A stretch of DNA of 64,000 bases, taken from the NCBI RefSeq assembly GCF_055900595.2, contig NZ_CM148325.1; one strand, given 5' to 3'. Numbering within the stretch: the first letter of the stretch is position 1; every line of letters starts with the position of its first letter. The position numbers and the translations under genes were made by a program. Shown here piece after piece: positions 25,745 through 50,267 of this stretch. The notes beneath the pieces are model-generated. The model was not told the origin of the DNA and did no database searches. It saw nothing but the letters and a program-made list of their open reading frames with translations.

Positions 25745-25754
25745 GAGAGAACGG

Positions 25755-26445: not shown

Positions 26446-26464
26446 TTACGGCTTGAGCAGACCT

Positions 26465-28319: not shown

Positions 28320-28340
28320 CGACTCTTCAATAACTGACAA

Positions 28341-28366
28341 GGCCCGAGTTATCGGGCCTATTTTTT
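28341..28366 (+). terminator. Intrinsic terminator after uspE
   Basis: Hairpin GGCCCGAGTTATCGGGCC followed by TATTTTTT. Confidence 0.55.
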
Positions 28367-28368
28367 AC

Positions 28369-28626: not shown

Positions 28627-28869
28627 GATGTAATCCTTGTGCAGACAAATTTTTTGTTACCTCTATGCAACAATACCATGACATTTCACTCTTGTCTGCT
28701 CTGAAAACCTCACCTCTTAGCCGGATTTACAATCAATGCATTGATTTGTTAGCTAATGTTGCTACTTACTTCCCTGACTATTGATGATCTGAATGAATTG
28801 TCGCGGTAAAATATCCCCGCCAGGGGTTTCCGGCATGACGACAATTATCTGGAGGAGCCTGATAAAACA

Positions 28870-29901
28870 ATGATCGCTGAACTGTTTACAAATAATGCGC
28901 TTAATCTGGTCATTATTTTCGGTAGCTGCGCAGCATTGATTCTGATGAGCTTTTGGTTTCGCCGTGGAAATCGTAAAAGAAAAGGGTTTTTATTCCATGC
29001 GGTGCAATTTTTCATCTACACCATAATTATCAGTGCTGTTGGTAGCATCATTAATTATGTTATAGAAAACTATAAACTCAAATTTATCACCCCAGGCGTT
29101 ATCGATTTTATCTGTACGTCCCTGATTGCGGTTATTCTGACGATTAAACTATTTCTGCTGATAAATCAGTTTGAAAAACAGCAGATTAAAAAAGGTCGCG
29201 ATATCACCAGTGCGCGGATTATGTCGCGTATCATCAAAATCACCATTATTGTGGTACTTGTTTTGCTTTATGGCGAACATTTCGGCATGAGCCTTTCTGG
29301 CTTGTTGACCTTTGGTGGTATTGGTGGTCTGGCTGTCGGTATGGCCGGTAAAGATATTTTGAGTAATTTCTTTTCCGGGATTATGCTCTATTTCGACCGT
29401 CCTTTTAGTATTGGCGACTGGATCCGTTCACCGGACAGAAATATCGAAGGTACAGTAGCGGAAATTGGCTGGCGAATTACCAAAATTACGACCTTTGATA
29501 ATCGTCCATTGTACGTACCGAACTCGCTGTTTTCGTCAATCAGCGTAGAAAACCCTGGACGAATGACCAACCGGCGCATTACCACGACCATTGGTTTACG
29601 TTATGAGGATGCGGCAAAAGTGGGCGTTATTGTCGAAGCCGTACGTGAGATGCTGAAAAATCACCCGGCCATCGACCAGCGACAAACCTTACTGGTTTAT
29701 TTCAACCAGTTTGCTGACTCCTCATTGAATATTATGGTTTATTGCTTTACCAAAACCACGGTATGGGCTGAATGGCTTGCCGCCCAGCAGGATGTTTATT
29801 TGAAGATTATCGATATTGTACAGTCACACGGCGCGGATTTCGCGTTCCCAAGCCAGACGCTGTATATGGATAACATTACACCACCAGACCAGGGTCGTTA
29901 A
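28870..29901 (+). CDS. ynaI: MscS-family mechanosensitive channel YnaI
   Basis: 343-aa ORF with N-terminal TM helices and MscS-type C-terminal domain. Confidence 0.9.
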
Positions 29902-29912
29902 TTCAGACATCA

Positions 29913-29940
29913 CTGGCGTTACCCACAAGGGTAACGCCAG
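29913..29940. terminator. Strong hairpin between convergent ynaI and mppA (possible bidirectional terminator)
   Basis: Perfect 12-bp stem CTGGCGTTACCC-acaa-GGGTAACGCCAG; no clean T-run on either side. Confidence 0.4.
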
Positions 29941-29946
29941 TTCACA

Positions 29947-31560
29947 TCAATGTTTCACAATATACATAGTCCGGCTATACGCCACATCTTCCGGGTTATT
30001 AATGGGATAACCTTTCAGCCACGGTTTGATTAATCGTCCATTGGTATATTGATAAATTGGTGCAATCGGTGCTTGCTCCATGAGGATTTTTTCTGCCGCG
30101 TTGTAATCGGCATTACGCGCTTTAACGGTATTTTCCGTCGATGCCTGGGCCAAAACTTTGTCGTAGGCCGGGTTGTTAAAGCGTGAAATGTTGCCTGAAT
30201 GCGTTGACGTTAATAATGTCAGGAAGGTGGAGGGTTCATTATAATCCCCCACCCACGAGGCGCGGATAACATCAAAATTACCTGTATTACGACTATCGAT
30301 ATAGGTTTTCCATTCCTGATTTTGCAGTTTGACATCTACACCAAGGTTCTTTTTCCACATCGATGCCACAGCAATCGCAATTTTTTGATGGTTTTCTGAA
30401 GTATTATACAAAAGCGTCAGCTTCAGCGGTTTTTGCGGACCATAACCGGCTGCGCTCAACAAAGTTTTTGCCTGCGCATTCAGTTCTTCCTGACTCATTT
30501 GTTCAAACGGCGAAGGCTCCGGCGTGAATCCGGCAGTAACATCTGGCGTAAAATGCCACGCTGGTTTTTCGCCCGTCCCCAACACTTTTTCGGTCATCAG
30601 GCGGCGATCTATCGTCATACTTAATGCCAGGCGAACGCGCTGATCTGCCGTCGGCCCTTTTTGCGTGTTAAACGCATAATAATAGGTCCCGAGCTGCGGC
30701 GGCGTATAAACCTGCCCCGGAATATCCTTCAACAGCTTCTGATACATATTTTTCGGGAAGGATTCGGTGATATCAATATCCCCCGCGAGATAACGCTTAG
30801 TGGCAGCGGATTCCTGATTAATTGGCAGGAAGGTCACTTTTTGCAGTACCGTTTTGGCGTTATCCCAATAATGGGTATTCGGCACCACGACCAGTTTTTC
30901 ATTGACTACGCGCTCTTTAAGAACATAAGCGCCATTGCCGATCAGATTTCCGGGTTTCGTCCACTCTTTACTGCTTTCTACGTTGGCTTTTTGCACCGGG
31001 AAGAAGGCAAAGTTAGCGGTTAAATTCACAAACCACGGCAATGGTTTATCAAGCTGGATTTTCAAAGTATGGGCATCAACTGCGGTGACGCCAAGCTGGT
31101 CAGGCGTGGCTTTACCATCAATAATCGCCTGTGCGTTGTTGATTCCCGCCAGCGCGGCAAACCATGCAAATGGCGAAAGTGTTTTCGGGTCCACCAGACG
31201 CTGCCAGCTGTAGACAAAATCTTGCGCCGTTACCGGTGTGCCATCCGCCCATTTTGCGTTATCGCGCAGGGTAAAAGTCCAGATACGGTTGTCATTACTT
31301 TTCCACTGAGTCGCAACGCCAGGGACAATCTCCCCTTTCTCGTTCTGATTCACCAGTCCTTCAAATAGATCGCGAATGACCTGAATCTCTGGCAGGCCCA
31401 CGGCTTTAGCGGGATCCAGCGACGCAGGCTCATCTTTAATGTGGCGCACCAGCTCCTGCTTCTCTGCCAGTACTGTGCCGCTCGGAACTTCTGCAGCATA
31501 CGAAAGAGAAATGCTGCTGACCAACAGCGCACAACACGTGACTGAAACAGAGTGCTTCAT
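29947..31560 (-). CDS. mppA: Periplasmic murein tripeptide-binding protein MppA
   Basis: 537-aa ORF with signal peptide; OppA-like family 5 solute-binding protein. Confidence 0.9.
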   Translation of the reverse strand: MKHSVSVTCCALLVSSISLSYAAEVPSGTVLAEKQELVRHIKDEPASLDPAKAVGLPEIQVIRDLFEGLVNQNEKGEIVPGVATQWKSNDNRIWTFTLRDNAKWADGTPVTAQDFVYSWQRLVDPKTLSPFAWFAALAGINNAQAIIDGKATPDQLGVTAVDAHTLKIQLDKPLPWFVNLTANFAFFPVQKANVESSKEWTKPGNLIGNGAYVLKERVVNEKLVVVPNTHYWDNAKTVLQKVTFLPINQESAATKRYLAGDIDITESFPKNMYQKLLKDIPGQVYTPPQLGTYYYAFNTQKGPTADQRVRLALSMTIDRRLMTEKVLGTGEKPAWHFTPDVTAGFTPEPSPFEQMSQEELNAQAKTLLSAAGYGPQKPLKLTLLYNTSENHQKIAIAVASMWKKNLGVDVKLQNQEWKTYIDSRNTGNFDVIRASWVGDYNEPSTFLTLLTSTHSGNISRFNNPAYDKVLAQASTENTVKARNADYNAAEKILMEQAPIAPIYQYTNGRLIKPWLKGYPINNPEDVAYSRTMYIVKH

Positions 31561-31742
31561 AAGTTTCCCTCAAACCTGCGTTAATAATCATGCGTAATTA
31601 TTTGTTTCGCCTTAAAGAAATGCAAACAACTTCCGGCAAAAAAGTGATACAAGATCGATAACATAGCGTTGAAGAAAAGGATTTGATAATCCGCAAAATT
31701 TGCACAACACTGCCTGTAATACTTCCTGAACCAGAGACGATT

Positions 31743-32471
31743 ATGACCGTAACCCGCCCACGCGCCGAACGCGGCGCATTTCCGCCCGGAACAGAACATT
31801 ACGGACGTTCATTATTGGGCGCGCCTTTGATCTGGTTTCCGGCCCCAGCCGCCAGTCACGAAAGTGGTTTGATTCTGGCTGGCACCCACGGTGATGAAAA
31901 CTCTTCGGTCGTGACCCTCTCCTGTGCTCTGCGGACATTGACACCTTCTTTGCGCCGCCATCATGTGGTGCTGTGTGTGAATCCTGACGGTTGCCAGTTA
32001 GGGTTACGGGCCAATGCTAATGGCGTGGATTTAAATAGAAACTTTCCGGCAGCAAACTGGAAGGAAGGTGAAACGGTTTATCGCTGGAACAGCGCCGCTG
32101 AAGAACGTGATGTCGTTTTACTGACAGGTGACAAACCTGGCTCCGAACCTGAAACTCAGGCGCTGTGCCAGCTTATACATCGCATTCAACCTGCCTGGGT
32201 GGTCTCATTCCACGATCCACTGGCCTGTATTGAAGACCCCAGACACAGCGAATTAGGCGAATGGCTGGCCCAGGCGTTTGAATTGCCTCTGGTAACCAGC
32301 GTCGGTTATGAAACACCTGGCTCTTTCGGCAGTTGGTGTGCGGATCTCAACCTGCATTGCATCACCGCAGAGTTTCCGCCCATCTCCTCCGACGAAGCCA
32401 GCGAAAAATATCTCTTTGCGATGGCAAACTTGCTGCGCTGGCATCCTAAAGATGCAATTCGCCCGTTGTGA
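31743..32471 (+). CDS. mpaA: Murein peptide amidase A (gamma-D-Glu-Dap amidase)
   Basis: Track ORF 31683..32471; start moved to MTVTRPRAERG (242 aa); zinc carboxypeptidase-like HGDE motif. Confidence 0.85.
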   Translation: MTVTRPRAERGAFPPGTEHYGRSLLGAPLIWFPAPAASHESGLILAGTHGDENSSVVTLSCALRTLTPSLRRHHVVLCVNPDGCQLGLRANANGVDLNRNFPAANWKEGETVYRWNSAAEERDVVLLTGDKPGSEPETQALCQLIHRIQPAWVVSFHDPLACIEDPRHSELGEWLAQAFELPLVTSVGYETPGSFGSWCADLNLHCITAEFPPISSDEASEKYLFAMANLLRWHPKDAIRPL

Positions 32472-33411
32472 ACTGAAGCGCCGGTTCCACATCTACCGCC
32501 AGCCAGGTCGGTCCGTCAAGATCGGCGAAACTGACCTGCGGCACCAGCGGTAAAGCGGCGCTAATGGCACGAGAGGTACACAACATGCAGCCCAGCATCA
32601 GACTAAAACCTTGTGCACGTGCTTCAGTCGCCAGCGCCAGCGCTTCCGTCAGGCCACCCGTTTTATCGAGCTTAATGTTAACCATCTCATAGCGCCCTTT
32701 CAGCGCCTTCAGATTGCTACGAGTATGACAACTTTCATCAGCACAAATCGGTAACGGATGAATAAAATTCTCCAGCGCCGCATCGTCCTGCGCAGGAAGC
32801 GGTTGTTCAAGCATCGCAACGCCTAAATCCGCCAACAGCTGGCAACGCGCCGCCAACCCTTCTGCACGCCAGGATTCATTTGCATCAACGATCAACGTCG
32901 CATCGGGCACAGCCGTGCGAATTGCCACCATCCGCTCACTAATAAGATGGTTATCCAGCTTCACTTTCAGTAATTTCGCGCCTGCCTGCCAGAGTGTTGA
33001 TGCACTATTGGCCATCTGATCAGGCGTACCGATGACTACCGTCTGGGCAGTGGTGACTGTCTCGGGAAGCGTTATGCCGATCAAATCAGCCAGCGATTGC
33101 TGCTGTTTTCGCGCCGCCAGATCCCACAATGCACAATCCAGCGCATTACGTGCTGCGCCGGCAGGGAGAATTTTTTGCAACTCCTCCCGTGTCAGCCCTT
33201 TCTCTAATTGCGGCACGACGCTCATAATTTGCGCCATTACCGAGGCATCACTTTCTCCATAACGCGGATACGGCGTGCATTCACCGGTGCCTTTAATACC
33301 TTCTTCTTCCAGTTCAACCACCACCACGCGCGCTTCACTACGACTTCCCCGAGCAATCACAAACGGGGTATGTAAGGGCCAGGCTTCCTCAAATACCTTA
33401 ACGGTTCTCAT
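32446..33411 (-). CDS. ycjG: L-Ala-D/L-Glu epimerase
   Basis: Track ORF 32446..33453; start moved to MRTVKVFEEAW (321 aa); enolase superfamily; 3' end overlaps mpaA convergently. Confidence 0.9.
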   Translation of the reverse strand: MRTVKVFEEAWPLHTPFVIARGSRSEARVVVVELEEEGIKGTGECTPYPRYGESDASVMAQIMSVVPQLEKGLTREELQKILPAGAARNALDCALWDLAARKQQQSLADLIGITLPETVTTAQTVVIGTPDQMANSASTLWQAGAKLLKVKLDNHLISERMVAIRTAVPDATLIVDANESWRAEGLAARCQLLADLGVAMLEQPLPAQDDAALENFIHPLPICADESCHTRSNLKALKGRYEMVNIKLDKTGGLTEALALATEARAQGFSLMLGCMLCTSRAISAALPLVPQVSFADLDGPTWLAVDVEPALQFTTGELHL

Positions 33412-33529
33412 CTTTACTCCTTGTTGTCGCGGTGGTCTGCGGATTAAGCGCAAATAGCGTTTGCTGTGTTATTGACAGTTAGCATAAACTAGGTGTGACG
33501 TTAACTATATGTAAACAGGAAAGATAATC

Positions 33530-34033
33530 ATGTCACAAACCGTTCATTTCCAGGGCAACCCGGTTACAGTCGCCAATTCCATCCCGCTGGCGGGTAGCAA
33601 AGCGCAGACTTTTACTCTCGTGGCAAAAGATCTGTCTGACGTCACCCTCGGTCAGTTTGCGGGTAAACGCAAAGTGCTGAACATTTTCCCGAGTATTGAT
33701 ACCGGTGTTTGCGCCGCATCAGTACGTAAGTTTAACCAACTGGCAACCGAGATCGACAACACCGTTGTGCTGTGTATCTCTGCCGATCTGCCGTTCGCCC
33801 AGTCTCGTTTCTGCGGCGCAGAAGGTCTGAACAACGTTATCACCCTCTCCACTTTCCGTAACGCTGAATTCCTGCAAGCCTACGGTGTGGCAATTGCTGA
33901 TGGCCCACTGAAAGGTCTGGCAGCGCGTGCCGTTGTGGTTATTGATGAAAATGACAATGTGATTTTCAGCCAGCTGGTGGATGAAATCACCACCGAGCCG
34001 GATTACGAAGCAGCTCTGGCTGTACTGCGCTAA
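33530..34033 (+). CDS. tpx: Thiol peroxidase Tpx
   Basis: 167-aa ORF with peroxidatic Cys context ([10 protein letters not shown]). Confidence 0.95.
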
Positions 34034-34040
34034 ACAACTG

Positions 34041-34080
34041 TGCCGTTCACTGAATCACCACCGGTGAACGGCAGTTTTTT
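34041..34080 (+). terminator. Intrinsic terminator after tpx
   Basis: Hairpin TGCCGTTCAC-N13-GTGAACGGCA followed by TTTTTT. Confidence 0.6.
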
Positions 34081-34178
34081 GATCTACCAGTCCCACTATT
34101 TTCCAGAGTTCCTGCCACTATTCCCCCTAACCGTTGTGCATTAAGATTGCTCTTTGCCATTATTGGCCCAGCGGAGTG

Positions 34179-36230
34179 ATGACTATTATGGATGATAAAC
34201 AAATTACGGTCTGGCTTAAACACAATTGCTGTTCAACGGACATTCCTGCCATTGCCGAGGCACTAACGAACCATGCAGAATGGCTTTTAGAGCTAGCGCC
34301 AGATCCTATTGAACAAGGTAGTTCATGTTTACCGCCGACAGCTGCAGCCGGTATTTTTCTTGGCGCAGCGGCGATGGTTCACTGCGGCGAGGCTAGTGGT
34401 GCAGAAACCTGGCTCGAAGCAGCCATTACTGATTACCATTTCCTTAATCCAAATGGATATAGTTCATGGAGAGGCAGTACGCCTGTTTTTACAGCAATAT
34501 CGCGTTACCCGGCATTAAGAATGGTGTTATTTAACGCCGCTTGCGCAATGGAAGACTGGAATAAAGCATCCGCTGTTCTTGAATCGCTTTTCCATGCCAG
34601 CGATGTCCCGGAAGATAACCCTGTCGCCCCAAATTTTACCCCTTATGCGCTGAAAGCGTTTATCGCGGATTACCACCCGTTAGGGCCTGCTTATTATGAT
34701 GAAACCTGGTTGCTGGCAAAACAAGCGTGGTTAATTAATGCGGGCGTTCTGGATGAGCGAACCTGCAATACCTGGAAGCAATATACCCGCCACTTGCGCC
34801 ATTTGATCCACAATGCACAGTTTGCCGATGCGCTCTCTTTTGTACGCAGTAAAATAGAACCGTTAAATCATATCCATACCTACTCAGACTTTTATCTGTA
34901 TGCGATTGGTTTATTTTCTTATACTAGTCAGCTAAATGAAGCGCTGACCTGGATAAAACAGTTAATCCACAACAATGATGGTCATTTCTGTGATCTTTTC
35001 GTTTCAACTGGCAAAGAGCGCCGAATAAAGCCTGAACTTAGTACCTTGCTGAATAATCTCTTGCACAGCGCAGAGTTTCAGGCGTTGCAGGATAAATATC
35101 TCACCGTCGGACATGATGTTGTGCATTCTGGTCCCTTCATGTCAGTTTATGAAAAGGTTCTTGGCGGAAAGTCCCGAAAGCGCTGCGCGATTAGTCGAAA
35201 ATTAATCTCGCCCGGCGAAGCGGTTTATGAATATCGTCATTTGGATAGTGTGGAATATATTGCAGCGAAAGCGGCCTTTCAGACATCTGAGCTAAATAAT
35301 ATCGCCCACCGGCATCATAATGATAGTTATCAGTGGCATGAATTTGCCGCCCAATGGCCTCGTCGGGGTTCACTTTCTCACCCAGATATTGCCCGTTATT
35401 TGTTTGAGCGCCAGGAAGGAAAATGCTTTGATGCCGCAGAGTTTATACAACTGATTGCGGAACCGTTTGTCTTTCCGATGCGTTTCATATGGGTTGCCGG
35501 GTTGTCCTTTGAATTACATCAGTATCCGGATGCCTATTTCGTAAATGACAATATGGCGGGTGAATTTGTTAATCTCTGCTGGATGGCTATGAAATGCGGA
35601 CATGCTGGCGACATTTTCAAACAACTGGCCCACGAGCCGCATGACGTTGCTGACCCTATTTACGCCATGCTCGCCACGTTTGACCGCGCTGATTGCCGTA
35701 GCGCGGCCGCCGCGCACTTTGGACAACCGGAACTACCGGAAATAATGGCACTGGCTTTCAGTTCGAGGTTATCGCTCGACAGCGTCCTTACCATCGCTGA
35801 GTTTGGTAAAAATCAGCCGCGATTTTCACATGCGCTAGCAACGGCCCTCCTGCGTTACAACCTGCACATCTACTCAAACTATATGCCGCAGGTTAATTGG
35901 TACCTTCAGGGGCTGGAACACTATGCTTTGGCAAAAGGCGGTCAACTTTTAAATTTCTTTGTGCATATTCCAGAACAAATTCCCGTTCTGGCGACCATGC
36001 TGGAACATGGCGTATTAGTGCGTGGGATCGGTGAAGGTGCCTATGATGGTTATGATAATTCAGCAAATTCATTTCATCATGCCGTCGTGATGCACTGCCT
36101 CGCGCACGCGCCGGAAAAAGTCCGCTACTGGATGGAAACACCCTGGATTCAGAACTATTTAGTGAATGCGCCGCTGCGTCAAACGGCGCGCCATGTGGAA
36201 GCCTGGCATAAAAAGTTTGGCATCAAATGA
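34179..36230 (+). CDS. Hypothetical protein (~683 aa), function unknown; not present between tpx and tyrR in K-12 as I recall
   Basis: Track ORF 34134..36230 (opens with TTG); likely start ATG 34179 or 34188 downstream of GGAG (34174..34177). No signal peptide, TM segment or Walker A motif seen; Trp/Tyr/His-rich, apparently helical. Sits between tpx terminator and a GC hairpin (36239..36259) shared with the tyrR 3' end. Confidence 0.6.
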   Translation: MTIMDDKQITVWLKHNCCSTDIPAIAEALTNHAEWLLELAPDPIEQGSSCLPPTAAAGIFLGAAAMVHCGEASGAETWLEAAITDYHFLNPNGYSSWRGSTPVFTAISRYPALRMVLFNAACAMEDWNKASAVLESLFHASDVPEDNPVAPNFTPYALKAFIADYHPLGPAYYDETWLLAKQAWLINAGVLDERTCNTWKQYTRHLRHLIHNAQFADALSFVRSKIEPLNHIHTYSDFYLYAIGLFSYTSQLNEALTWIKQLIHNNDGHFCDLFVSTGKERRIKPELSTLLNNLLHSAEFQALQDKYLTVGHDVVHSGPFMSVYEKVLGGKSRKRCAISRKLISPGEAVYEYRHLDSVEYIAAKAAFQTSELNNIAHRHHNDSYQWHEFAAQWPRRGSLSHPDIARYLFERQEGKCFDAAEFIQLIAEPFVFPMRFIWVAGLSFELHQYPDAYFVNDNMAGEFVNLCWMAMKCGHAGDIFKQLAHEPHDVADPIYAMLATFDRADCRSAAAAHFGQPELPEIMALAFSSRLSLDSVLTIAEFGKNQPRFSHALATALLRYNLHIYSNYMPQVNWYLQGLEHYALAKGGQLLNFFVHIPEQIPVLATMLEHGVLVRGIGEGAYDGYDNSANSFHHAVVMHCLAHAPEKVRYWMETPWIQNYLVNAPLRQTARHVEAWHKKFGIK

Positions 36231-36267
36231 ACGTTGCCGCTGCGCCTTAACGGCGCAGCCAGCACAA

Positions 36268-37809
36268 TCACTCTTCGCTTTTCTTCTGGTTTAAGCCATA
36301 TTCCCGCAACTTATTGGCAATCGCGGTATGCGAAACACCGAGACGTTTTGCCAGTTTGCGTGTGCTGGGATAATTGCGATAAAGCTGGGTTAATACCGAG
36401 CGTTCAAAACGGCTGGTGATTTCGTCCAGCGAACCTTCCATCGCATCTTCGCCCACGGCTACCGTTGCGGCGTCATAATCCGGTAACAAAATATCCTGTG
36501 GACGCAGCTCATAGCCGTCCAGTTGTGTCAGTGCGCGATAGATAGCGTTCTTTAACTGCCGCACATTTCCCGGCCACGCATAACGCGTAAGTACAGTATT
36601 CAGGTCAGCGGCCAGTTTCGGACGCGGCACGCCCTGCTCGTCGGCAAAGCGGGCGACGAACAGCTCGGTTAACGGCATGATGTCCTGCGGACAATCACGT
36701 AGCGGCGGCAGATTGAGCGTCAACACGTTCAGACGATAATAGAGATCTTCACGGAACACGCCTTTTTGCACCAGTTCGACCAAATTCTTCTGCGTAGCGC
36801 AAATAACCCTTACATCGACATGCACTTCATGATCTTCACCAACTCGACGGAAAGTACCATCATTAAGGAAACGCAGTAATTTCGCCTGCATCCGTGGTGA
36901 CATCTCACCTATTTCATCCAGCAGCACCGAACCACCGTTCGCCTGCTCAAAGAATCCTTTCTTCCCTTCCGGAGCATGACCAAAGAGCTCACTCTCGACC
37001 GCATCTTCCGGTATAGACGCACAGTTCAGCGCCAGGTAAGGTTTGCTCGCTCTGGGGCTTGCCTGATGGCAGGCGTAGGCAAAGAGATCTTTACCTGTAC
37101 CGGTGTCACCCGTAATCAGCAACGGCGCGCTTAGCATCGCCAGTTTCTGCGCCTGTTCGACAACATGCTTCATTTTCGGGCTGACGGCGACAATTTGACT
37201 GAAGGCACTGACGTCCTGTGCAGCGACATTCTGCAACTGACGGCCCATACGAATCGTCGAGCGCAACATCACCACCGCACCGGTCAGAACGTGTTGATCA
37301 TTTTCATCCTGAAGATAAACAGGCGTAATCTCCATCAGGAAATTCTGCCCATTAATAACGACATGCTCGTTATGCGAGTCTTGCGGTTCGCTTTCCAGCC
37401 AGCGTAAAAAATTAAAGCCGTTAATTAATTGCGCGGCGGTATGGTTGCGCAGGCGATCCAATTTTTGCCCAAAAAGCTGACAGCTCGCCGGGTTCGCCAT
37501 ATCCACTTTGCTTTTCATATCAACAGAAAGCACAGGTTCAGGCAACGCCTCCAGTAACGCGCTCAACGCCAGATGCTCACGTTCGGAAGGCATCCACGGG
37601 ACAGTACGCACATCGGTAACACCTGCAATACGGCGTATTTCGGCCATCAGACTGCTGAAGCTCTCAAACTCCAGTTCAGCAAAATTGAGGTAGATTCGCC
37701 CAATGGGGTCAATCTCAATACCGCGTAAATCAATGCCTCTTAGCACGAGTAGATCGAGTAATTCGCGGGTCAGACCGAGTCGGTCTTCACAAAAGACTTC
37801 CAGACGCAT
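36268..37809 (-). CDS. tyrR: Transcriptional regulator TyrR (sigma54-type AAA+ domain, HTH)
   Basis: Track ORF 36268..37836; start moved to MRLEVFCEDRLGLTREL (513 aa); Walker A GDTGTGKD. Confidence 0.95.
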   Translation of the reverse strand: MRLEVFCEDRLGLTRELLDLLVLRGIDLRGIEIDPIGRIYLNFAELEFESFSSLMAEIRRIAGVTDVRTVPWMPSEREHLALSALLEALPEPVLSVDMKSKVDMANPASCQLFGQKLDRLRNHTAAQLINGFNFLRWLESEPQDSHNEHVVINGQNFLMEITPVYLQDENDQHVLTGAVVMLRSTIRMGRQLQNVAAQDVSAFSQIVAVSPKMKHVVEQAQKLAMLSAPLLITGDTGTGKDLFAYACHQASPRASKPYLALNCASIPEDAVESELFGHAPEGKKGFFEQANGGSVLLDEIGEMSPRMQAKLLRFLNDGTFRRVGEDHEVHVDVRVICATQKNLVELVQKGVFREDLYYRLNVLTLNLPPLRDCPQDIMPLTELFVARFADEQGVPRPKLAADLNTVLTRYAWPGNVRQLKNAIYRALTQLDGYELRPQDILLPDYDAATVAVGEDAMEGSLDEITSRFERSVLTQLYRNYPSTRKLAKRLGVSHTAIANKLREYGLNQKKSEE

Positions 37810-37879
37810 GGGAACCTTCACCTGAAAAAAGAACAATTAATATGATGATATGACACTATTTGGATAGCAGGAAGGTTTC

Positions 37880-37897
37880 TGTCAACAATAATTGACA
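37880..37897. promoter_or_regulatory. Putative TyrR box upstream of tyrR (autoregulation)
   Basis: Palindrome TGTCAA-caataa-TTGACA resembling TGTAAA-N6-TTTACA, with the symmetric G and C 14 bp apart; 71 to 88 nt upstream of the tyrR ATG. Confidence 0.45.
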
Positions 37898-37956
37898 CAA
37901 AGACGGAAAAACGGGCACTTCGGCGTAAAGATATCCGGTCAGCACCCGATATTGCA

Positions 37957-39018
37957 TTATTTTTCGGCAGGAGTTTTGCCTTTTTGCAGCGTCTCTTTCA
38001 CCTGACCAATAAGCTGGCGACGGAAATCCCCGAGGCGAGGTTTGTCATCGTCAATCCACGGCAGCGGGCGGCAAAGCTCCATAGCTTTAATCCCCAGTCG
38101 TGCCGTCAGAAGTCCAGCACCAATCCCCTGAGCTGCGCGGGTAGACAAACGCGCAGCGAGATCTTGCGACATCCAGTCCATCCCCACTTCGCGCACCAGT
38201 TCGCTGGCTCCGGCAAAAGCGATATTCAGCAATACCAGCTTAAACAGGCGCAAACGGCTGTAATATCCCAGTTCAATGCCATACAACGTGGCGATGCGAT
38301 TAATCAAACGCAGATTGCGCCAGGCGATAAATGCCATATCCACCAGCGCCAGTGGGCTAACGGCAATCATTAACGTTGATTCCGCCGCTGAGCGACTGAT
38401 TTCGCGCCGCGCCTGAGCATCTAAAACCGGCTGGACCAGATGAGCATACAGGCTGACCACTTCACGATCGTTCTGCGTTTCATGGATTGACGCATACCAG
38501 CGTTGCAGCGCCGGATGGGACTGATCAATACCCGCCTGCTGCGCCAGTTTTTCACAAAATGCGCGGCCTTTGCCCGTGCCGTGGCTGTGCAATAAATCAC
38601 GCGCTTCGTCGCGTTCATGGGCGCGCTGTCGCAAGCGCCATAAGCGCCGCCACTCTGTTACCACAGAACCGACGCCAGCGCCGATAATCAATGCCCCAGC
38701 GGCACATCCACCCAGCGCTACCCAATCCTGAGTTTGCCAGGCATTCATCGTCCACTGCACGCCCTGTCCGACAACGCTTGCACCAAACAGAGCCAACCCG
38801 CCCATCACCATTTTGCGCCACAGGCTGCGTTTCGGACGTAACGCTGCGTCCATCACCGCTTCAACTTGCCCCTCTTCTTCCTGCGCTTCGTCGAGCGTGG
38901 CCGGGGCAAAATTTTGCGCCTGATTTTCGTCAAAGGTCTGCTGCGCCCTGAATTTTGGATTCTGATCGACCTCCAGCGGACCGTCGAAATCAATACGTGG
39001 TTTTAACGGTTCGGTCAT
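37957..39018 (-). CDS. ycjF: YcjF, inner-membrane protein (UPF0283)
   Basis: 353-aa ORF with central TM helices; translationally coupled to ycjX (4-nt overlap). Confidence 0.85.
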
Positions 39019-40412
39019 CGCAATTTATCTCCTATTAAAAATTCCAGCGCAGCATCAAGACGAATATGCGGCAGCGGTTTGTCGACATCCATCACCTGCG
39101 GACGAAACGCCTCAAACTGGAAGCCTTGCTTATCCCAGAACGCCTGACCAGGCAAACGTGCGGGAACTTCGCCAGGATAAACAGTGAGCGGTGCGCCATC
39201 ACTGAGTCGATTACCGCGCAGCGCCGGGATTTTCTCACCGTTAACATCAATAATGCCGCTGGTGGTCGCCTGAACTGACGCCAGCCCCAGGCAGTCCATA
39301 CTGATCCCTTCGAACGCCGCATTTTGCCAGGCATCCTGAATCAGTTGTTGCAGTAATGAAACCATATTGGCGTGCTGATCGATGGTCACATGATCCGCTT
39401 TAGTGGCAGCAAACAATAGCTTATCGATAACCGGCGAAAACAAGCGCCGGAACAAGGTACGCTGCCCGTAGTGGAAGCTTTGCATCAGCTGCGTCAGCGC
39501 CAGACGCATATCATTGAATGCTTGTGGTCCACTGTTGAGAGGTTGCAGGCAATCCACCAGCACAATCTGCCGATCAAAGCGCAGAAAATGATTTTTATAG
39601 AACCCCTTCACCACTTTCTCGCAGTAATAATTAAATCGTTCGCGCAGCATTCCGGCATTGGTGTGCTTGTCGGCCTGTGCAAGTTTTGATTCGCCCCAGG
39701 CATCGACATCCGGCCACGGGAAGAATTGCAACGCGGGCGCACCTGCCATATACCCCGGCAAGACAAAACGCCCAGGCTGAATAAAGTGCAGCCCCTGCTG
39801 TTTACAGTGGTGGAGATAATCGGTCCATGCGGCAGCAATGTCTGCAAGACGGTTTTCGTCGGCAGGTGCTAGTGGGTCCAGCCCTTCGCACATCATTCGC
39901 CATTTTGCCGACCATTCGCCGCGCTGACCATTGAGTAAGCCCGTCATCTGGCGCGACCAGCTTAAATAGTCCTGCGCCAACATCGGCAAGTCGAGTAACC
40001 ATTCGCCGGGATAATCCACTATCTCCAGATACAACGTGGAAGTGTCTTTGAAGTGACGCAACAGCGAATCGTTCGATTTATAGCGTAGCGCCAGGCGAAT
40101 CTCACTGACGCCGCGTGTTGGGGTCGGCCAGGCGGGAGGATCGCCATATAACTGCGCCAGCCCTTCATCGTAGGTGAAGCGTGGAATGCCAAAGTCACGC
40201 TGGGGAATGCGTTTTACGCCCAGCAGGCGCTCTTCACGCACCGCACTTAATAGCGGCAAGCGTGCTCCGGCATGAATATTGAGCAACTGATTGACCATCG
40301 CAGTGATAAACGCGGTTTTGCCGCTGCGGCTAAGTCCGGTTACAGCGAGGCGCAGATGTCTGTCGACACCCCGATTCACCAGCGCATTAAGTTCATTTTT
40401 AAGTCGCTTCAT
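39015..40412 (-). CDS. ycjX: YcjX, P-loop NTPase
   Basis: Track ORF 39015..40499; start moved to [12 protein letters not shown] (465 aa); Walker A GLSRSGKT. Confidence 0.85.
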
Positions 40413-41665: not shown

Positions 41666-42571
41666 TCAGAACGCGTAATTCACACCGACACCTGCATAAT
41701 GGAATTTATCGCTGTCGCCTTCATCGTGATCCTGCCACTCAAACGCGTATTCCAGCGAAACGGAAAGACCATTCTGGAAATCATAACCGTAAAACAAACC
41801 AAGACGGTTAAAATCATGGCCTTCACGTTCGATATCATCCTGCCAGTCCCAGTTACTCCAGCGATCCAACCCAATGCGCGTATACGGTGTTACCGAGTGA
41901 TTGCCGAGCGTCAGCGGTAAATAGGCGCGAATTTCTTGCGTGGAGAATTCACCGTTATTGCGGCTGTCGTCCATATTGAAGCCGCGCTCGAGATAATAGT
42001 TCACTCGCAAGGCAACCGTTTCGTTGAAGGTATATTGCAGACCCGTTTCCGTTTCGACACGGGTATCAGCATAACCGGTTGTATTCAGATCGTTGGCAAA
42101 TTTATACATCGACAGCCATCCGTTGAAACGTAAATCGTCAGTCAGTTTCACATCCCAGTCTGGCGCGATTTTCCAGCGCTGCATATTTGCCGTGTCTTTA
42201 CCCGGTTCATCAACATAGTGATAACCATAGTTACGGAAACCACCGGTCAGGCCGAAACTGAAATCATCGCTTTCGAGAAACTGATAATGCACTTCGAGTT
42301 CCGGGCGATCAAACCAGTTTCCACGTTTACCCGCGCTATAATCTACCGGCCCTTCCTGGTAATAAGCCAGCGATATTCTCCACGGCCCATTGGCAGCATT
42401 AAAATAGACGGAAGGCTCCGCCAGCCCGTCCATATCTTCGCCATAACCCTCGACGTTTTCTATTTCGTACATCGCGCCGATATTAAAGTGCCAGTCGTTT
42501 TTTTCCTCAGCCTGTGCGCAGGCCATTCCCGCACACATCACCAGTGCGGTACAGGGTAATAACTTTTTCAT
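41666..42571 (-). CDS. ompG: Outer membrane porin OmpG
   Basis: 301-aa ORF with signal peptide and C-terminal aromatic residue (…VNYAF). Confidence 0.9.
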   Translation of the reverse strand: MKKLLPCTALVMCAGMACAQAEEKNDWHFNIGAMYEIENVEGYGEDMDGLAEPSVYFNAANGPWRISLAYYQEGPVDYSAGKRGNWFDRPELEVHYQFLESDDFSFGLTGGFRNYGYHYVDEPGKDTANMQRWKIAPDWDVKLTDDLRFNGWLSMYKFANDLNTTGYADTRVETETGLQYTFNETVALRVNYYLERGFNMDDSRNNGEFSTQEIRAYLPLTLGNHSVTPYTRIGLDRWSNWDWQDDIEREGHDFNRLGLFYGYDFQNGLSVSLEYAFEWQDHDEGDSDKFHYAGVGVNYAF

Positions 42572-42616: not shown

Positions 42617-43699
42617 TTAGCGAATTGCTATTTCCGTTTCTGCATCAAAGAAATGACATTTGGTCATATCAAAATGAATAGTGATATTTTCTCCTGCATG
42701 ATAATCATTTAACGCACCAGCACGGACCACTAACTCGTGCCCCCCAACCGTGGTGTAGAGCATAAATTCCGCACCGGTTAATTCTGCCACGCTAATTTTG
42801 GCGGAAATGTTATTTTCCTCTTGCGCATCCGGATGAATATCTTCCGGGCGTATTCCCATCACGATGGGCTTATGCAAGCTTTCCTGCGTTTTCAGAACCG
42901 CTAATTTATCTTCGGGAATGGTTAATTTAAGCGTTTCCGTAACGAATTTATCGCCATCGATCGTGCCGCGAATAAAATTCATTGCTGGTGACCCAATAAA
43001 GCCGGCAACAAACATATTCGCCGGTTGGTTATAGACCGTTTTCGGCGCACCGACCTGCTGAACAATCCCATCCTTCATAATGACAATCCGCGTCGCCATG
43101 GTCATCGCTTCGGTCTGATCGTGGGTCACGTAGATCATGGTGGTGTTCAGTTTCTGATGCAGCTTGCTGATTTCCGCGCGCATTTGTACGCGCAGCTTGG
43201 CATCCAGGTTAGAGAGCGGTTCATCCATTAAAAACACGCCCGCTTCGCGCACAATCGCCCGTCCAAGCGCCACACGCTGGCGTTGCCCGCCGGAAAGCGC
43301 ACCCGGCTTGCGTTTCAGGTACTCACGCAGGCCAAGGATTTGCGCCGCCCAGTTAACCCGCTCATCTATCACCTCTTTGGCGATTTTTTGCATCTTCAGG
43401 CCAAACGCCATGTTGTCGTAGACCGTCATATGCGGATACAGCGCGTAGTTCTGGAACACCATCGCAATATTGCGCGCTTTGGCCGGAACGTCGTTCATTC
43501 GTTTGCCGTCGATCAACAGATCGCCGCCGCTAATCTCCTCAAGCCCGGCAATCATACGCAGCGTCGTCGATTTACCACAGCCCGACGGGCCGACAAATAC
43601 AATGAACTCTTTATCGGCAATTTCCAGGTTGAAGTCCTTCACCACATGCACCTGGTTATCGTAGATTTTTTGAATATGTTGTAACGAAAGCTGTGCCAT
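42617..43699 (-). CDS. ycjV: ABC transporter ATP-binding protein YcjV (MalK-like), full length
   Basis: 360-aa ORF with Walker A GPSGCGKST, signature LSGGQ and Walker B FLMDEPLS; intact here, whereas I recall a truncated pseudogene in K-12. Confidence 0.85.
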   Translation of the reverse strand: MAQLSLQHIQKIYDNQVHVVKDFNLEIADKEFIVFVGPSGCGKSTTLRMIAGLEEISGGDLLIDGKRMNDVPAKARNIAMVFQNYALYPHMTVYDNMAFGLKMQKIAKEVIDERVNWAAQILGLREYLKRKPGALSGGQRQRVALGRAIVREAGVFLMDEPLSNLDAKLRVQMRAEISKLHQKLNTTMIYVTHDQTEAMTMATRIVIMKDGIVQQVGAPKTVYNQPANMFVAGFIGSPAMNFIRGTIDGDKFVTETLKLTIPEDKLAVLKTQESLHKPIVMGIRPEDIHPDAQEENNISAKISVAELTGAEFMLYTTVGGHELVVRAGALNDYHAGENITIHFDMTKCHFFDAETEIAIR

Positions 43700-43712: not shown

Positions 43713-44372
43713 CTATACGTTTTGCCAGAAGGCCGATAACCGCGGCCAGGTCAGAGATTCCGTTGAGGGCAGCAACAGTTGCGCCCCGGTTAAGCTCGTG
43801 CCGATCCCCACCGAGCGCATACCGCTGGCGTTAATGGCGTCAATACCCGCCTGCGCATCTTCAATGCCAATGCAGGCCTGTGGAGGCACGCCCAGCCCTG
43901 CACAGGCGGCGAGAAAGATTTCCGGGTCCGGTTTCGAGTGTTTAAGTTGGGAAGCGTCCGCGCAGAAGGTGAAAAACTCGCGCAGCTCCAGCGCCGCTAA
44001 AATTGTTGGGGCATTCAGGGAGACGGAGGCCAGCCCTACCGGGATGCCTTGCGCCCGAAGATCTGCCAGCAAAGGCCGAATTCCCGGCAGAACAGCGTTA
44101 ACCGTCAGTTCGCGCAGTGAGTGGACGTAGAGCAGATTTTTGCGATACGCCAGTTGCGCCCGCTCTTGCACGTTAAAGTCGCCCTCTTTGCCCCCGTGTT
44201 GCAGAATGCGTCGCAGGGACTCATCGCGGCTGATCCCTTTTAACGTCTCGTTAAATTGCACATCGATGCCGATGCCGATTTCGGCAGCAATCTGCTGCCA
44301 TGCCTGGAAGTGCAGATGTGCGGTGTCGGTGATCACGCCATCCAGATCGAAAATTACCCCTTGTAGTTTCAT
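43713..44372 (-). CDS. ycjU: Beta-phosphoglucomutase
   Basis: 219-aa ORF with HAD motif I ([12 protein letters not shown]). Confidence 0.9.
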
Positions 44373-44388
44373 TCATCCTCTTGATGCG

Positions 44389-44402
44389 TGGTAGCGGTCC
44401 CA
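44389..44402. promoter_or_regulatory. Putative LacI-family (YcjW) operator, copy 2
   Basis: Minus strand TGGGACCGCTACCA, identical to the 14-mer upstream of ycjM; inside the ycjT 3' end, 17 to 30 nt upstream of the ycjU ATG. Confidence 0.45.
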
Positions 44403-46267
44403 TTGAAGGGCAAAATAAAATCACCCAAACAGAAAACAGACTCTTCAGTCACGGAAATAAGCTGACCGTTCAACCGCAGTGAAACGGGCGCAGAAGTTCG
44501 AATCGCAATACGCTGCGCGTCGAGAGTGACCTGTAATTCGCAGCCCTGCCAGAACAGAGGGAAAGACAACTGTTGCCACTGCTCAGGTAACGCCGGATTG
44601 AGAAGTAATTCGCCGTCGCGCACGCTGACTCCGGCAAAACCCTGAATCGCGCCCAGCCAGATAGCGCCAGTTGCGGCAGCGTGGATACCGTCATCACAGC
44701 TATGCGGATCAGCACCGAGATCGATTTCACTCCCCTCGCGCCAGAACGGGTAACTCTGCGCAAGCAAGCCACAACGCGCGGCAACAATGCCGTGGATCGC
44801 TTTACTCAATGACGAGTCGTGAATGGTGCGCGGTTCATAAAATTGCAGATTGGCGAGACAAGAGGCCGCTGAAAATTGTTCCGGTAGCATGTAATTGAGC
44901 ATCACTACATCGGCCTGCTTGAGGATCTGCATCTCGTTCACTTCTGCGCGTGAATAATCCAGCAGAATGGTTTGCTTCCCGGCCGCCGCTTTGTATTTCG
45001 CCAGATCTATCGCCGGTTTCGCCATAAACGAATCATCCTGCGGCAAAACGCCGTCGGGCTGAATTTCTGGCATCCACAGCTCTTTGAGGAACATGTCGGC
45101 ACGATGAATAAACGCGTCGTCGCTACAGCAAAACTGGCGAGCAATATTCAGCGCCTGTTGGACGTTGTAGCAGGCCATATAACTGGTGTATGCGTTATTA
45201 TTAACGTGTTCGGTATATTCGTCTGGCCCAATAACATCATGAATTTCCAGGCGGTCGTTAACCCTTACCGCACGGCTAATCCAGAACTTTGCGGTCTCCA
45301 GCAGTAGCGCCATGCCTTCGTGAGCGATGAAGCTTTCATCTCCCGTTACCTGCCAGTATTGAATAACCGCCCAGGCGATATCGGCAACCAGATGATGTTC
45401 TGCCTGCGCTGAGGCCACTTTTTGCCGCAGCCCGGTACGAATGTTAATGGCGGCAAATTCCGGCGTTTCTTCTTCGCCGCTACGTGCGCTCTCCCACGGA
45501 AACAGCGCGCCCTGCCAGCCATTGCGTCGCGCTTTCTCCTGCGCCCCTGGTAAGTTGTGCCAGCGATAGCGCAGCAAACTCCGGGCAATCGTCGGTTCGC
45601 TAAACAGATGGAACGGCAGCATGAACACTTCCGTATCCCAGAAAACATGGCCTTTGTAGCCTTCCCCGGTTAAGGCTTTTGCCGCAATGCTGCTACGCTC
45701 GTCGTGGGCGGGCGTCATAATACGCAAATGATAAAGCGCATAGTCTAACGCCCGCTGATCGTGCGTATCGCAACTCTTTACCGTGATACGACGTTTCTGC
45801 CACCATTGCTGCCAGTTTTCTGTCGATGCTGCAAGAAGTTGGTCATAACTCTGTTGTGTAGACATTTCGAGCTGGCGAAGCGACCCACTGCCCCACTCGT
45901 CTAAAGCGGCTTGTCGGTCGTCCCGCCAGTCAATCCACACCCGCTTTTGCAGGGTCAGTGTTTCACCTGTGCGAAGTTGCGTGCTGGTATGTTGCAGCAA
46001 ACGGCGCTCTTTTGCGGTATAGCACTGCTGAACGTCACCATCCGCCTGACAGTGACAACTGATGGCCACATCACTGCGCCCATCCTGGGTGGTGTAGATC
46101 CCCTGCATCAAATGCTGACCAAACACCCGCACCTGGGTTTCGTCAAGATGCTGGCGACCGTGGTTGGTTTGCGTGGCGTTAATGCCTGTTGAGATCAGCA
46201 CTGATGCCTCGGCGTCCAGCGGGGTAATACTGATTTCCAGCGCGATCAACGGCAGTTGATCTGTCGA

Positions 46268-46978
46268 AATAAATATCCTCCGGCATAGCCGGAGGTTTTT
46301 CAAATGCGCCTGTAAGGCTCTGTTACCAGCCGCGCCCTAACAGGCGCATACGATCTGACATTTGCATTCAACTTCGTTACTTACGGCCCGTAAACGGGCT
46401 GCCCGGATATGGAATCGATAACTGCTCCCCCATTTTATCCTCTTCAAGCTGGTGCTTTATGTAGTCCTGTATCTTCGCCGTGTTCTTACCCACCGTATCG
46501 ACATAGTACCCTCGGCACCAGAACTCCCTGTTTCTGTATTTGAATTTCAAATCCCCAAACTGCTCGTAAAGCATCAGACTGCTTTTCCCTTTCAGATATC
46601 CCATAAAGCCGGATACGCTCATTTTGGGTGGGATTTCCACAAGCATATGGATATGATCTGCGCAGCACTCTGCTTCCAGAATCCGTACGCTTTTCCACTC
46701 ACACAGCTTTCTCAAAATACTGCCTATCGCCCTACGCTTCTCTCCGTAAAACGCCAGTCTTCGGTATTTCGGCGCAAAAACTATGTGATATTTACAGTTC
46801 CAGCGGGTGTGCGCTAAGCTCTTTTCGTCCCCCATTGGGACCCCCTTTTGATTTCTTGTTTGACACTTGCAGTTGCCAGACCGCAAGGTGTTTTAACAAA
46901 TCAAAAGGGGTTTTAATAACTGGCTCAAAGCTGAAAGCTTTCCGGAACCCCCAGCCTAGCTGGGGGTTTTCTGTGCAC
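46268..46978 (-). mobile_element. IS200-type insertion sequence (IS200/IS605 family), about 711 bp
   Basis: Boundaries inferred from where ycjT homology stops and resumes (within a few nt). Upstream of tnpA: palindrome CCCCCAGC-ctag-GCTGGGGG (46943..46961) and a stem-loop overlapping the tnpA RBS. Downstream end: hairpin CCTCCGGC-ata-GCCGGAGG (46277..46295). Confidence 0.85.
46377..46835 (-). CDS. tnpA: IS200 transposase TnpA (HUH Y1)
   Basis: Track ORF 46377..46886; start moved to MGDEKSLAHTRWNCKYHIVFAPKYRR (152 aa); HUH motif (ADHIHML) and C-terminal Tyr region (RGYYVDTVG). Confidence 0.9.
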   Translation of the reverse strand: MGDEKSLAHTRWNCKYHIVFAPKYRRLAFYGEKRRAIGSILRKLCEWKSVRILEAECCADHIHMLVEIPPKMSVSGFMGYLKGKSSLMLYEQFGDLKFKYRNREFWCRGYYVDTVGKNTAKIQDYIKHQLEEDKMGEQLSIPYPGSPFTGRK

Positions 46979-47343
46979 AACAAAGCGACGACTTGCAAGG
47001 GTGAACCCTGCGCCGTCGCTCGTGCGCCAGATAACACTGCGGCGTAATTCTCCACTGGCAAAGTCAAGCTCACGCTGCCACGCTTCGCGGGATAACGAAA
47101 AAATCTCGCCGTTTAGGGTAATTTCCATTCCCACCACGTCTGGCAGATTCACCAGTTCGTTGATTTCACCTTTCCCGGCTCGATGATAAAGCCCTGCCAG
47201 ATACATGCCGCGCGTCTGCCGCGTGTAATCTTCTTCATGGCTGGCACGAAGCCCAAGATAGCCGTTTCCCTGCGCCATTAATGAGGCATATTTATTCAGG
47301 GTATGCTGGCTGAAATGGGGTTCCGTTAATGTTACTGGCCTGG

Positions 47344-48399
47344 TCATAATTCCACACGCGTCCCTGTTTCTGCGGATTGATACAGCGCCGCCACCAGTTG
47401 CTGGATGATGTACCCTTGCTCGGCGTCGGCAATCATCACTGGCTTGCCCTGTACGTGATTGATAAAGGCTTCCATGCTGCGCAAATGACGGTTGTCGTCG
47501 GCCAGTTCCCGTTGCATCAACGTCATTAATTCACCGTTGTTGTCGGTATAGATATGCGCCGGAAATAGCGTGGCTCCCGCTTTATCGCCGCAAAAGCTGA
47601 CGTTCATAATCGACTGTTCGCGGATGTTGAGTGCAAATGATGTCTCCAGCCAAAGAATGCCGCCGTTATGAAATTCAATGGTGCCAAACAGCGAATCTTC
47701 GACGCTGTAGGTTGCCGGGTCCCACTCGCCAAATTGACCACAGCTCTTTTGCGGGCCGATCTTTTGAAAGCTATGCGCATTCACGCTTTTCACTGCCGGA
47801 AAGCCCAGCACATACATCGCGGCATCCAGCATATGAATGCCGATGTCGATCAGCGGGCCACCGCCCTGCAGTTCTTTATTGGTAAAGACACCCCAACCGG
47901 GAACGCCGCAGCGACGCAGGGCGCGAGCGGTCGTCACGTAAATCTGACCCAAAACGCCGTTGGTCACCTGTTCACGCAGTTGTTGCGTATCAAGGGCAAA
48001 ACGATGGTGAAAGTCGTAGGCCAGCACCTTGCCCTGTTTGCGCGCGGTATCGCACATTTCCCGCGCCTGTTCTGGCGTCATGGCGGGCGGTTTCTCGCAC
48101 ATCACATGGCAGCCTGCCTCCAGCGCCATCAGGGTATGCTCGTAATGAAAACGGTTAGGTGAACAGACGCTTATCACGTCAGGTTTTACCGCCAGCAGCA
48201 TGGCCTGCGGATCGTCCCACACGGATGCGTTCCCGTATTTCTCTGCCAGCGCCTGCGCCTGGGAAAGGCGGCTGTCACAGACAGCCACCAGTTCCAGATC
48301 GTTGCGGGTGCAGTAGTACGAAGCATGAACCTTATCCGCCACCTGGCCCGCGCCTATTATCGCGACCCGCAGCGGAGAGCTTGTCATTGCACTTTTCAC
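47344..48399 (-). CDS. ycjS: Gfo/Idh/MocA-family oxidoreductase
   Basis: 351-aa ORF with Rossmann motif (VAIIGAGQVADKVH); stop overlaps ycjT start. Confidence 0.9.
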   Translation of the reverse strand: MKSAMTSSPLRVAIIGAGQVADKVHASYYCTRNDLELVAVCDSRLSQAQALAEKYGNASVWDDPQAMLLAVKPDVISVCSPNRFHYEHTLMALEAGCHVMCEKPPAMTPEQAREMCDTARKQGKVLAYDFHHRFALDTQQLREQVTNGVLGQIYVTTARALRRCGVPGWGVFTNKELQGGGPLIDIGIHMLDAAMYVLGFPAVKSVNAHSFQKIGPQKSCGQFGEWDPATYSVEDSLFGTIEFHNGGILWLETSFALNIREQSIMNVSFCGDKAGATLFPAHIYTDNNGELMTLMQRELADDNRHLRSMEAFINHVQGKPVMIADAEQGYIIQQLVAALYQSAETGTRVEL

Positions 48400-49213: not shown

Positions 49214-50267
49214 TTAAAAAGTTACGCCCATTTTGATGCTCTGTTCCGGATGCTGGTCGACATACTGCATGTAGCTTTCCGGGCTGTTAGCAAAGGTCAC
49301 CACCGGGTCGATTAAATCTTCACAATTGAGATAACCGTTCATCAGCAGTTCCCAGCAGGTTTCTTCAATACGCTTGCGGCTCCAGCGCGGATAATCCGGG
49401 TTCGGTTCACTGCACGCACGAGAGAAGACAATTTTGGCGTTGTTGAAATGCGCTTCACGTCCGAGGTTAAAACCTTCAGCAAACGGTTTGGCAAACGCAA
49501 CATAGGAGATGGTGCCGCCATAAGCCAGGCCGCGCAGTGCCGATTGCAGCGCGTCGGCGTAGCCGCTGGTTTCGATAATCACATCGGCACCCTGCTTGCC
49601 GGTCAGCGTTTTAATCTCTTTGCCTACATCCGTGCCAATGGGGTTAAGGCAGAAATCCGCCCCGTGGCGACGGGCAATATCACAGCGATGAGCGATAGGA
49701 TCGACACCAATCACCACCGACGCGCCAGCGCGTTTTGCCAGTTGAATGGCAATTTGACCAATCGCGCCAAGCCCTACCACCACCACAAAATCGCCCACGC
49801 GCACGTTGGCATCGCGCACGCCGCTCATGGCAAACTGCGCCGGGTCGTAACAGACGGCGTTTTTCCACGAGCTACCTTGCGGCATTTTGCGCAGTTTGTA
49901 GTTATTCACCGCGTTAATGATGACCGTTTCGGAAAGCGGGCCGTAGCCGCATACGCTGTCGCCCACCGCGTAGTCGGTAACCTCGCTGCCGCACTCGATA
50001 ATGTCGCCAACCACCATGTTGCCAAGCTGGAACTTGCCAAACTCAATGCCGCGCGGCGCATCTGCCGGACGGGGGGGTGAACATCTGCCATTCGCCATTA
50101 AAGTCTTCATTAATAAACGGGCTGGCGGCGCGGAAATCGACCACTTCCGTCCCGTGTTTCGGCGCGCCGAACCGCACGCGGATCTTCACTTCATTGGCTG
50201 AAATCGCCCTGTCTTCATACTCCACCAACGCGGCAACGCGCGGTGCTGTGGCTACTAACTTTTTCAT
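49214..50267 (-). pseudogene. ycjQ: ycjQ (zinc-type alcohol dehydrogenase) with +1 frameshift in a C7 run
   Basis: N-terminal 74-aa ORF (50043..50267, MKKLVATAPRVAALVEY...QMFTPPSGRCAARH*) and C-terminal 298-aa ORF (49214..50110) overlap in different frames around G7 at 50071..50077 (C7 on the coding strand). Confidence 0.7.

Follow-up and report, generated by a model that had tools for sequence, protein, structure and literature searches.

An IS200 insertion in ycjT, recent and common to a circulating sub-lineage of Escherichia coli

A stretch of 64,000 nucleotides from contig NZ_CM148325.1 (assembly GCF_055900595.2), called the window here, was analysed. It carries the ycj operon, in which a complete IS200 element separates ycjT into two fragments (Table 1). 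In K-12, YcjT is annotated as kojibiose phosphorylase. The reading frame of ycjT is broken after nucleotide 369, between codons 123 (Val) and 124 (Ser), in agreement with the 123-codon N-terminal piece and the C-terminal piece described in the initial annotation. After in silico removal of positions 46268..46978 a ycjT of 2268 nt and 755 codons with a single terminal stop was obtained. In the interrupted gene the ycjT frame continues for 17 codons into IS200 up to a stop at 46925-46927, which results in a chimeric ORF of 140 aa. Judged from the reading frame, a YcjT cut after residue 123 of 755 must be inactive. As the ORF is regained exactly once the element is taken out, and excision is precise in this family, reversal of the lesion is possible in principle.

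Table 1 Features of the interrupted ycj operon and of the inserted element
Feature	Position	Strand	Description	Basis
Complete IS200	46268..46978	-	711 bp; left end (LE) at 46978, right end (RE) at 46268	
tnpA	46377..46835	-	152-aa Y1 (HUH) transposase and stop codon	
LE palindrome	46946..46968	-	perfect, 10 bp, GC-rich; AACCCCCAGC-TAG-GCTGGGGGTT	DNA and RNA folds, alignment with Rfam RF01405
tnpA 5'UTR stem-loop	about 46842..46910	-	pairs the Shine-Dalgarno sequence AAAGGGGGU	RNA fold
RE subterminal hairpin	46277..46295	-	8 bp; CCTCCGGC-TAT-GCCGGAGG, then ATATTTATT to the element end	
Target context, ycjT sense strand	46979..47020	-	imperfect hairpin 46984-47020, then TTTGTT up to the insertion point	
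ycjT, N-terminal fragment	46979..47347	-	123 codons	
ycjT, C-terminal fragment	44369..46267	-	632 codons and stop; no other lesions	
pgmB/ycjU	43713-44372	-	intact; candidate for polar effect	
ycjV	42617-43699	-	intact; candidate for polar effect	
ompG	41666-42571	-	intact; candidate for polar effect	
ycjQ homopolymer	50071..50077	-	C7, against C6 in intact ycjQ; causes a frameshift (ycjQ lies upstream of ycjT in the operon)	

The initial annotation had assigned the roughly 711-bp element to the IS200 type with a 152-aa HUH Y1 transposase, and both its coding capacity and its ends bear this out. The tnpA product matched the Pfam family Y1_Tnp (PF01797, E=9e-37) in a profile search and reached 144 bits with the NCBIfam equivalog NF033573 (transpos_IS200), for which the cut-off is 55. 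Its catalytic residues are intact, namely the HUH motif H61-I-H63 (residues 61-63) and a single Tyr125; the exchange Y125F served as catalytically dead TnpA control of Ellis et al. (PMC4513863). The nearest solved structures are those of the IS200-family transposases 2ec2 and 2f4f and of the IS608 TnpA (2a6m). With 711 bp, tnpA as sole gene and neither tnpB nor iscB, the element has the size and gene content of the IS200 group. Identity of 711/711 nt was found to annotated copies in the strains ST2747, N3 and Z0117EC0005 (loci L002, L003 and L004), and chance is hence unrealistic as an explanation. No further IS200 copies were detected elsewhere in the window. The region 46268-46978 is an ordinary insertion of IS200 (IS200/IS605 family, tnpA-only group), which is an already known kind of element and no new system.

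A terminator-like palindrome, a stem-loop occluding the ribosome binding site and a hairpin at the far end had also been proposed for the element, and all three were recovered by the folds and by the match to Rfam RF01405. The palindrome near LE is presumed to be the hairpin bound by TnpA. As RNA, the left-end region folds with -64.1 kcal/mol (z = -5.0). RF01405 (STnc490) spans 46845-46968 over the full length of the model with 146 bits, compared to a gathering score of 56. The model matches the tnpA-sense strand, whereas in the literature STnc490/art200 is antisense to the tnpA 5'UTR, the antisense RNA art200 being encoded on the strand opposite to the stem-loop region (PMC4513863). The match marks the locus and not the strand of the small RNA. 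The RE hairpin folds as DNA with -10 kcal/mol (z = -3.5), and a terminator scan classed it as terminator-like on both strands. A match of the Rfam model Ysr202 to 46201-46300 was rejected, as it reached 33.7 bits compared to a gathering score of 315 and reflects the RE hairpin hitting the 3' terminator of the model. Terminal inverted repeats are absent: the ends GTGCACAG... and ...ATATTTATT are unrelated as inverted repeats, and subterminal hairpins are found at both ends.

The exact ends were examined by comparison with the uninterrupted allele of E. coli Z0117EC0005 (locus L001, ycjT of 755 aa), relative to which the window contains exactly 711 extra bases. Identity of the flanks extends up to 46269 and resumes at 46979, leaving an ambiguity of 2 nt (AA). 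The empty site reads GAAAC, and the element is flanked by AA on either side. In seven IS200 copies with different flanks the invariant block corresponds to 46268-46980, with AA at both ends of every copy. The registers 46268-46978, 46269-46979 and 46270-46980 therefore fit equally well, and the sequence would be the same for an element of 711 bp without duplication as for one of 709 bp plus a duplicated 2 bp. The junction of tandem IS1541 copies in Yersinia pestis (RE...TTATT/GTGCCC) was considered as arbiter and rejected, because all three registers predict this string. IS608 and ISDra2 make no duplication and enter on the 3' side of a target oligonucleotide that then flanks them (PMC5027513, PMC2806898), and for this reason the register 46268-46978 was adopted. 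The coordinates proposed at the outset are thus one of three valid placements within 2 nt and the one favoured by the mechanism of the family. By the same analogy, the insertion in ycjT probably occurred without target-site duplication.

The other E. coli copies of IS200 (IS200/IS605 family transposase, tnpA product WP_000502112.1) share the ends and the flank motif with the copy in ycjT and differ in location alone. The latter lies in a coding sequence, whereas the other six copies inspected lie between genes, with a terminator hairpin and a T-tract just outside LE. The IS200 of Salmonella enterica, which we take to be about 90% identical to the ycjT copy, has the same architecture. It comprises about 707 bp with an LE terminator, a stem-loop sequestering the Shine-Dalgarno sequence, the art200/STnc490 locus and Tyr125 (PMC4513863). 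In its published map the bidirectional terminator is placed at nt 12-34 and the stem-loop at nt 69-138 (PMC4513863); the features of the ycjT copy agree with this map within 1-2 nt. Furthermore, the Salmonella insertion hisD984 and the one in ycjT are both intragenic and both located in metabolic operons.

IS1541 of Y. pestis is 87% identical to the ycjT copy over the full length, with an identical LE hairpin and the same flank of hairpin and T-tract. Its tandem copies are joined as ...ATATTTATT/GTGCCCAG. Differences concern the start of LE, which is GTGCCCAG in IS1541 and GTGCACAG in E. coli IS200, and the copy number, with many more copies in Y. pestis. IS608 of Helicobacter pylori and ISDra2 encode homologous Y1 TnpA proteins (PDB 2a6m, E=3e-19; 2xm3, 5e-16). 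They have in common with IS200 the subterminal hairpins, the lack of terminal inverted repeats, a conserved target oligonucleotide 5' of LE and the orientation towards the lagging-strand template. Unlike IS200, they carry tnpB and use the targets TTAC or TTGAT, and a requirement for a target hairpin is not reported for them. The exact 23-nt LE hairpin was also detected in genomes or metagenome-assembled genomes (MAGs) assigned to Bacillota, Mailhella/Desulfovibrio, Oxalobacter, Saccharibacteria, Elusimicrobiaceae, Vibrio and Yersinia (L018-L137). In an Oxalobacter MAG (L018) and a Bacillota MAG (L025) the DNA alignment is confined to about 45 nt of the element. For the distant groups, this hairpin may indicate either a very strong constraint, or horizontal spread, or contamination during binning.

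At the junction, the sense strand of ycjT reads ...GAGCGACGGCGCAGGGTTCACCCTTGCAAGTCGTCGCTTTGTT directly before the element, where a hairpin (-11.7 kcal/mol) precedes TTTGTT. No more than 0.6% of 45-mers drawn at random from the window fold as stably. Compared to shuffled sequences the hairpin alone is not significant (z = -1.4), so its weight rests on the comparison with other sites. For this comparison, species-representative genomes were scanned for the 23-nt LE hairpin. The 116 unique left flanks obtained stem from Yersinia, Vibrio, Brenneria, other Enterobacterales and several MAGs; many of them derive from few genomes, and Y. pestis accounts for about half. At positions -6 to -1 the flanks have the consensus TTTNTT, with T at -2 in 114/116 and T at -1 in 103/116. 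The stems end 0-9 nt from the junction, and the 45 nt before it fold with a mean of -11.5 kcal/mol, compared to -3.9 kcal/mol for random 45-mers of the window (1st percentile -10.3). The two strands of the window together have 228 TTTNTT sites, of which only 8 (about 3.5%) adjoin such a hairpin. Two of the eight are the ycjT target and the RE of the element itself; the RE, a hairpin followed by ATATTTATT, hence resembles a preferred target.

We tentatively propose, as a reading whose chances fall slightly short of even, that transposases of the IS200 group select their targets by mimicry of their own RE, i.e. a hairpin with TTNTT following 5-9 nt further on, on the lagging-strand template. Such mimicry would explain why elements of this group sit almost only at intrinsic terminators. 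The general association with terminators is not new, because a preprint reported that terminator-like sequences are strongly over-represented directly upstream of IS200/IS605 elements genome-wide (bioRxiv 10.1101/2025.07.22.666184). For an explicit statement on a target hairpin of IS200 or IS1541, the literature search gave only this 2025-26 preprint; older subscription papers lay outside the search.

Alternatively, the site may be chosen by a short T-rich sequence alone or nearly at random. The hairpin in ycjT would then be coincidental and the association with terminators a result of purifying selection against intragenic insertions. In favour of this, the ycjT hairpin is imperfect and does not stand out from its shuffles, and IS608 and ISDra2 need just a tetra- or pentanucleotide as target (PMC5027513, PMC2806898). 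The strict register of the 116 flanks, with T at -2 almost invariant and stems ending close to the junction, argues against a T-rich sequence as the only determinant. Moreover, hairpins accompany few of the TTTNTT sites in the window, yet the insertion in ycjT uses one of them, and selection for harmlessness is inapplicable to an intragenic insertion. We regard this alternative as unlikely, but as one that still deserves some weight. Survival of harmless intergenic insertions, as distinct from target choice, could in part contribute to the association with terminators.

The allele of ycjT in which the element resides is divergent. It shares 90.0% nt and 93.3% aa identity with K-12, whose allele retains CGTCGCTTTGTT but folds with -6.6 kcal/mol at this site, compared to -11.7 kcal/mol here. 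In general, the ycjT of the window is 90-95% identical to that of 4,826 E. coli genomes, while the region 20000-40000 of the window is 95-99% identical to most genomes. Because the divergence of ycjT exceeds that of the neighbouring 20 kb, the comparison suggests that the allele of the distal ycj operon was imported or is anciently divergent.

The transcription direction of tnpA is the same as that of the ycj operon. The GC skew of the window's plus strand is negative throughout, and in K-12 the operon lies on the plus strand at 1.37-1.38 Mb, which on the K-12 map is in the right replichore. From the skew, this position and the co-orientation of tnpA it follows that the tnpA-sense (top) strand is the lagging-strand template. 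Location of the top strand on the lagging-strand template was reported for the IS200/IS605 family (PMC5027513). In analogy to the "peel and paste" mechanism, the tnpA-sense strand would have been pasted into the lagging-strand template directly 3' of TTTGTT. The ycjT coding sequence of this lineage by chance mimics the context of terminator-like hairpin and TTTNTT in which elements of the IS200 group usually land. Both the single-strand mechanism and the part played by the hairpin in the selection of the target are inferred.

Over the positions 20000-40000, i.e. 20 kb upstream of the ycj operon, eight complete E. coli genomes, the closest ones found, share about 100% identity with the window: E200086 (from stool, Mali), E400634, E600003, 100117, 100248, AST85, E500002 and Z0117EC0005. 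This region contains an ORF of 680 aa (34188-36230, plus strand) between tpx and tyrR, genes that adjoin in K-12; no Pfam match was obtained for it even at E<=10, and it is annotated as "hypothetical protein" in E200086. Between E200086 and the window 17 SNPs per 37.7 kb were counted, with IS200 as the sole indel. The site in ycjT is empty in 8/8 of these genomes, so the uninterrupted ycjT that was to be looked for in related strains does exist. Among 5,426 complete E. coli genomes none contains the insertion spanning both junctions; the maximum coverage was 86%.

Of the 5,426 complete E. coli genomes, 2,687 gave IS200 matches, the median being 2 and the maximum 35 places per genome. In each of the eight closest relatives 16-18 such places were counted, with differences even among almost identical genomes. 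Although IS200 is reputed to be immobile, these numbers suggest that it was active recently in this clone. The statement of the initial annotation that IS200 transposes rarely thus holds for laboratory Salmonella, but is at odds with the copy numbers in the relatives of this lineage. According to a further alternative, the copy in ycjT is an immobile fossil whose only relevance is to supply the small RNAs 5'tnpA and art200. This would agree with the Salmonella IS200, described as practically immobile and with regulatory roles in the host for the RNA derived from its 5'UTR (PMC12594629, PMC5435999). However, the insertion is absent from the eight genomes about 99.95% identical to the window and therefore recent. 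In addition, tnpA (with HUH motif and Tyr125) and the two ends are undamaged, copies in other strains are 100% identical to this one, and the varying copy numbers given above speak against immobility as well. Hence, we consider a fossil improbable.

The exact chimeric protein of 140 aa was found on at least 23 public contigs (31 collection blocks), which belong to four isolate assemblies and to gut metagenomes. The isolate contigs include GCA_964249055.1 and GCA_974490495.1, both of megabase scale (5.35 and 5.49 Mb), and two draft assemblies. Two loci (L010 and L011) match the window over the entire IS200. Because the exact chimeric product recurs on these contigs, the insertion is a real marker of a sub-lineage. 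The marker proposed by the initial annotation is thereby made more precise, as the site is empty in the eight closest complete genomes. The insertion in ycjT is real, recent and common to a circulating E. coli sub-lineage. That the junction is an assembly artefact, in which a collapsed repeat joins ycjT to an IS200 copy located elsewhere, has practically no probability left. IS200 is indeed a multi-copy repeat and one metagenome contig is clearly chimeric via the conserved left end, but both junctions in the window are precise and complementary to one empty site, and the identical structure is present in the two megabase-scale assemblies and several others.

The chimeric metagenome contig mentioned (L012) was rejected as a valid carrier. 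At its positions 3150-3700 the truncated ycjT runs into the left end of IS200 and is followed by a different, truncated IS200 variant and a gene with an AbiJ domain. Most likely it is an assembly chimera formed via the conserved left end. Two divergent metagenome scaffolds (L016 and L017) were considered as independent insertions and rejected as such, as all differences lie upstream of 47750 (ycjS, ycjR and ycjQ) and the truncated ycjT is identical. Recombination or mosaicism of the metagenome is the simpler reading of their divergence.

Taken together, it is almost certain that an autonomous IS200 inserted into ycjT in a recent ancestor, at a hairpin followed by TTTGTT, with lower downstream expression as the expected consequence. 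The insertion truncates YcjT as described above, and the LE hairpin, tnpA and the RE hairpin now lie in the transcription path of the operon. Transcripts of the operon would meet the LE hairpin, then a poorly translated stretch of about 0.6 kb and finally the RE hairpin with its T-rich tail. The first IS200 found was a polar insertion in hisD (hisD984), and its LE hairpin is a bidirectional terminator (PMC4513863). Polarity is expected because of the two hairpin terminators of IS200 and this precedent, and reduced expression of pgmB/ycjU, ycjV and ompG is likely by analogy. Only two T's follow the LE hairpin in the direction of the operon, which counts against polarity. In a promoter scan of 46100-47150 no sigma-70-like promoters, neither outward nor inward, were detected. 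Expression of the downstream genes driven by the element is therefore unsupported.

The other genes of the operon differ between lineages as well. Here, ycjV is an intact gene for an ABC ATP-binding protein of 360 aa, but in K-12 a pseudogene; which pieces of the ycj operon have been lost varies among E. coli lineages. A frameshift in ycjQ was observed in the window, in E200086 (annotated as such; without the IS element), L010, L013 and L015, and ycjQ is intact in Z0117EC0005, L011 and L016. Its state is independent of IS200 among near-identical genomes, and the C tract may be either slippage-prone and hypervariable or subject to a recurrent sequencing error. As this frameshift already lies upstream in the operon, ycjT may not be the first hit in the pathway.

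The junctions TCGAAA/TAAATATCC and GTGCAC/AACAAAGCG provide a PCR or k-mer marker for the sub-lineage. The marked E. coli clone occurs in human gut isolates and metagenomes. The marker predicts the loss of kojibiose phosphorylase and probably lower levels of beta-phosphoglucomutase, YcjV and OmpG. Furthermore, the analysis of the target context offers a simple account of why IS200 seldom disrupts genes, which is a refinement and not a discovery. If target choice by mimicry of the RE is true, ycjT was hit only because the divergent allele stabilises the hairpin before the conserved TTTGTT, and allelic variation in coding sequences would create or remove a hotspot for IS200.
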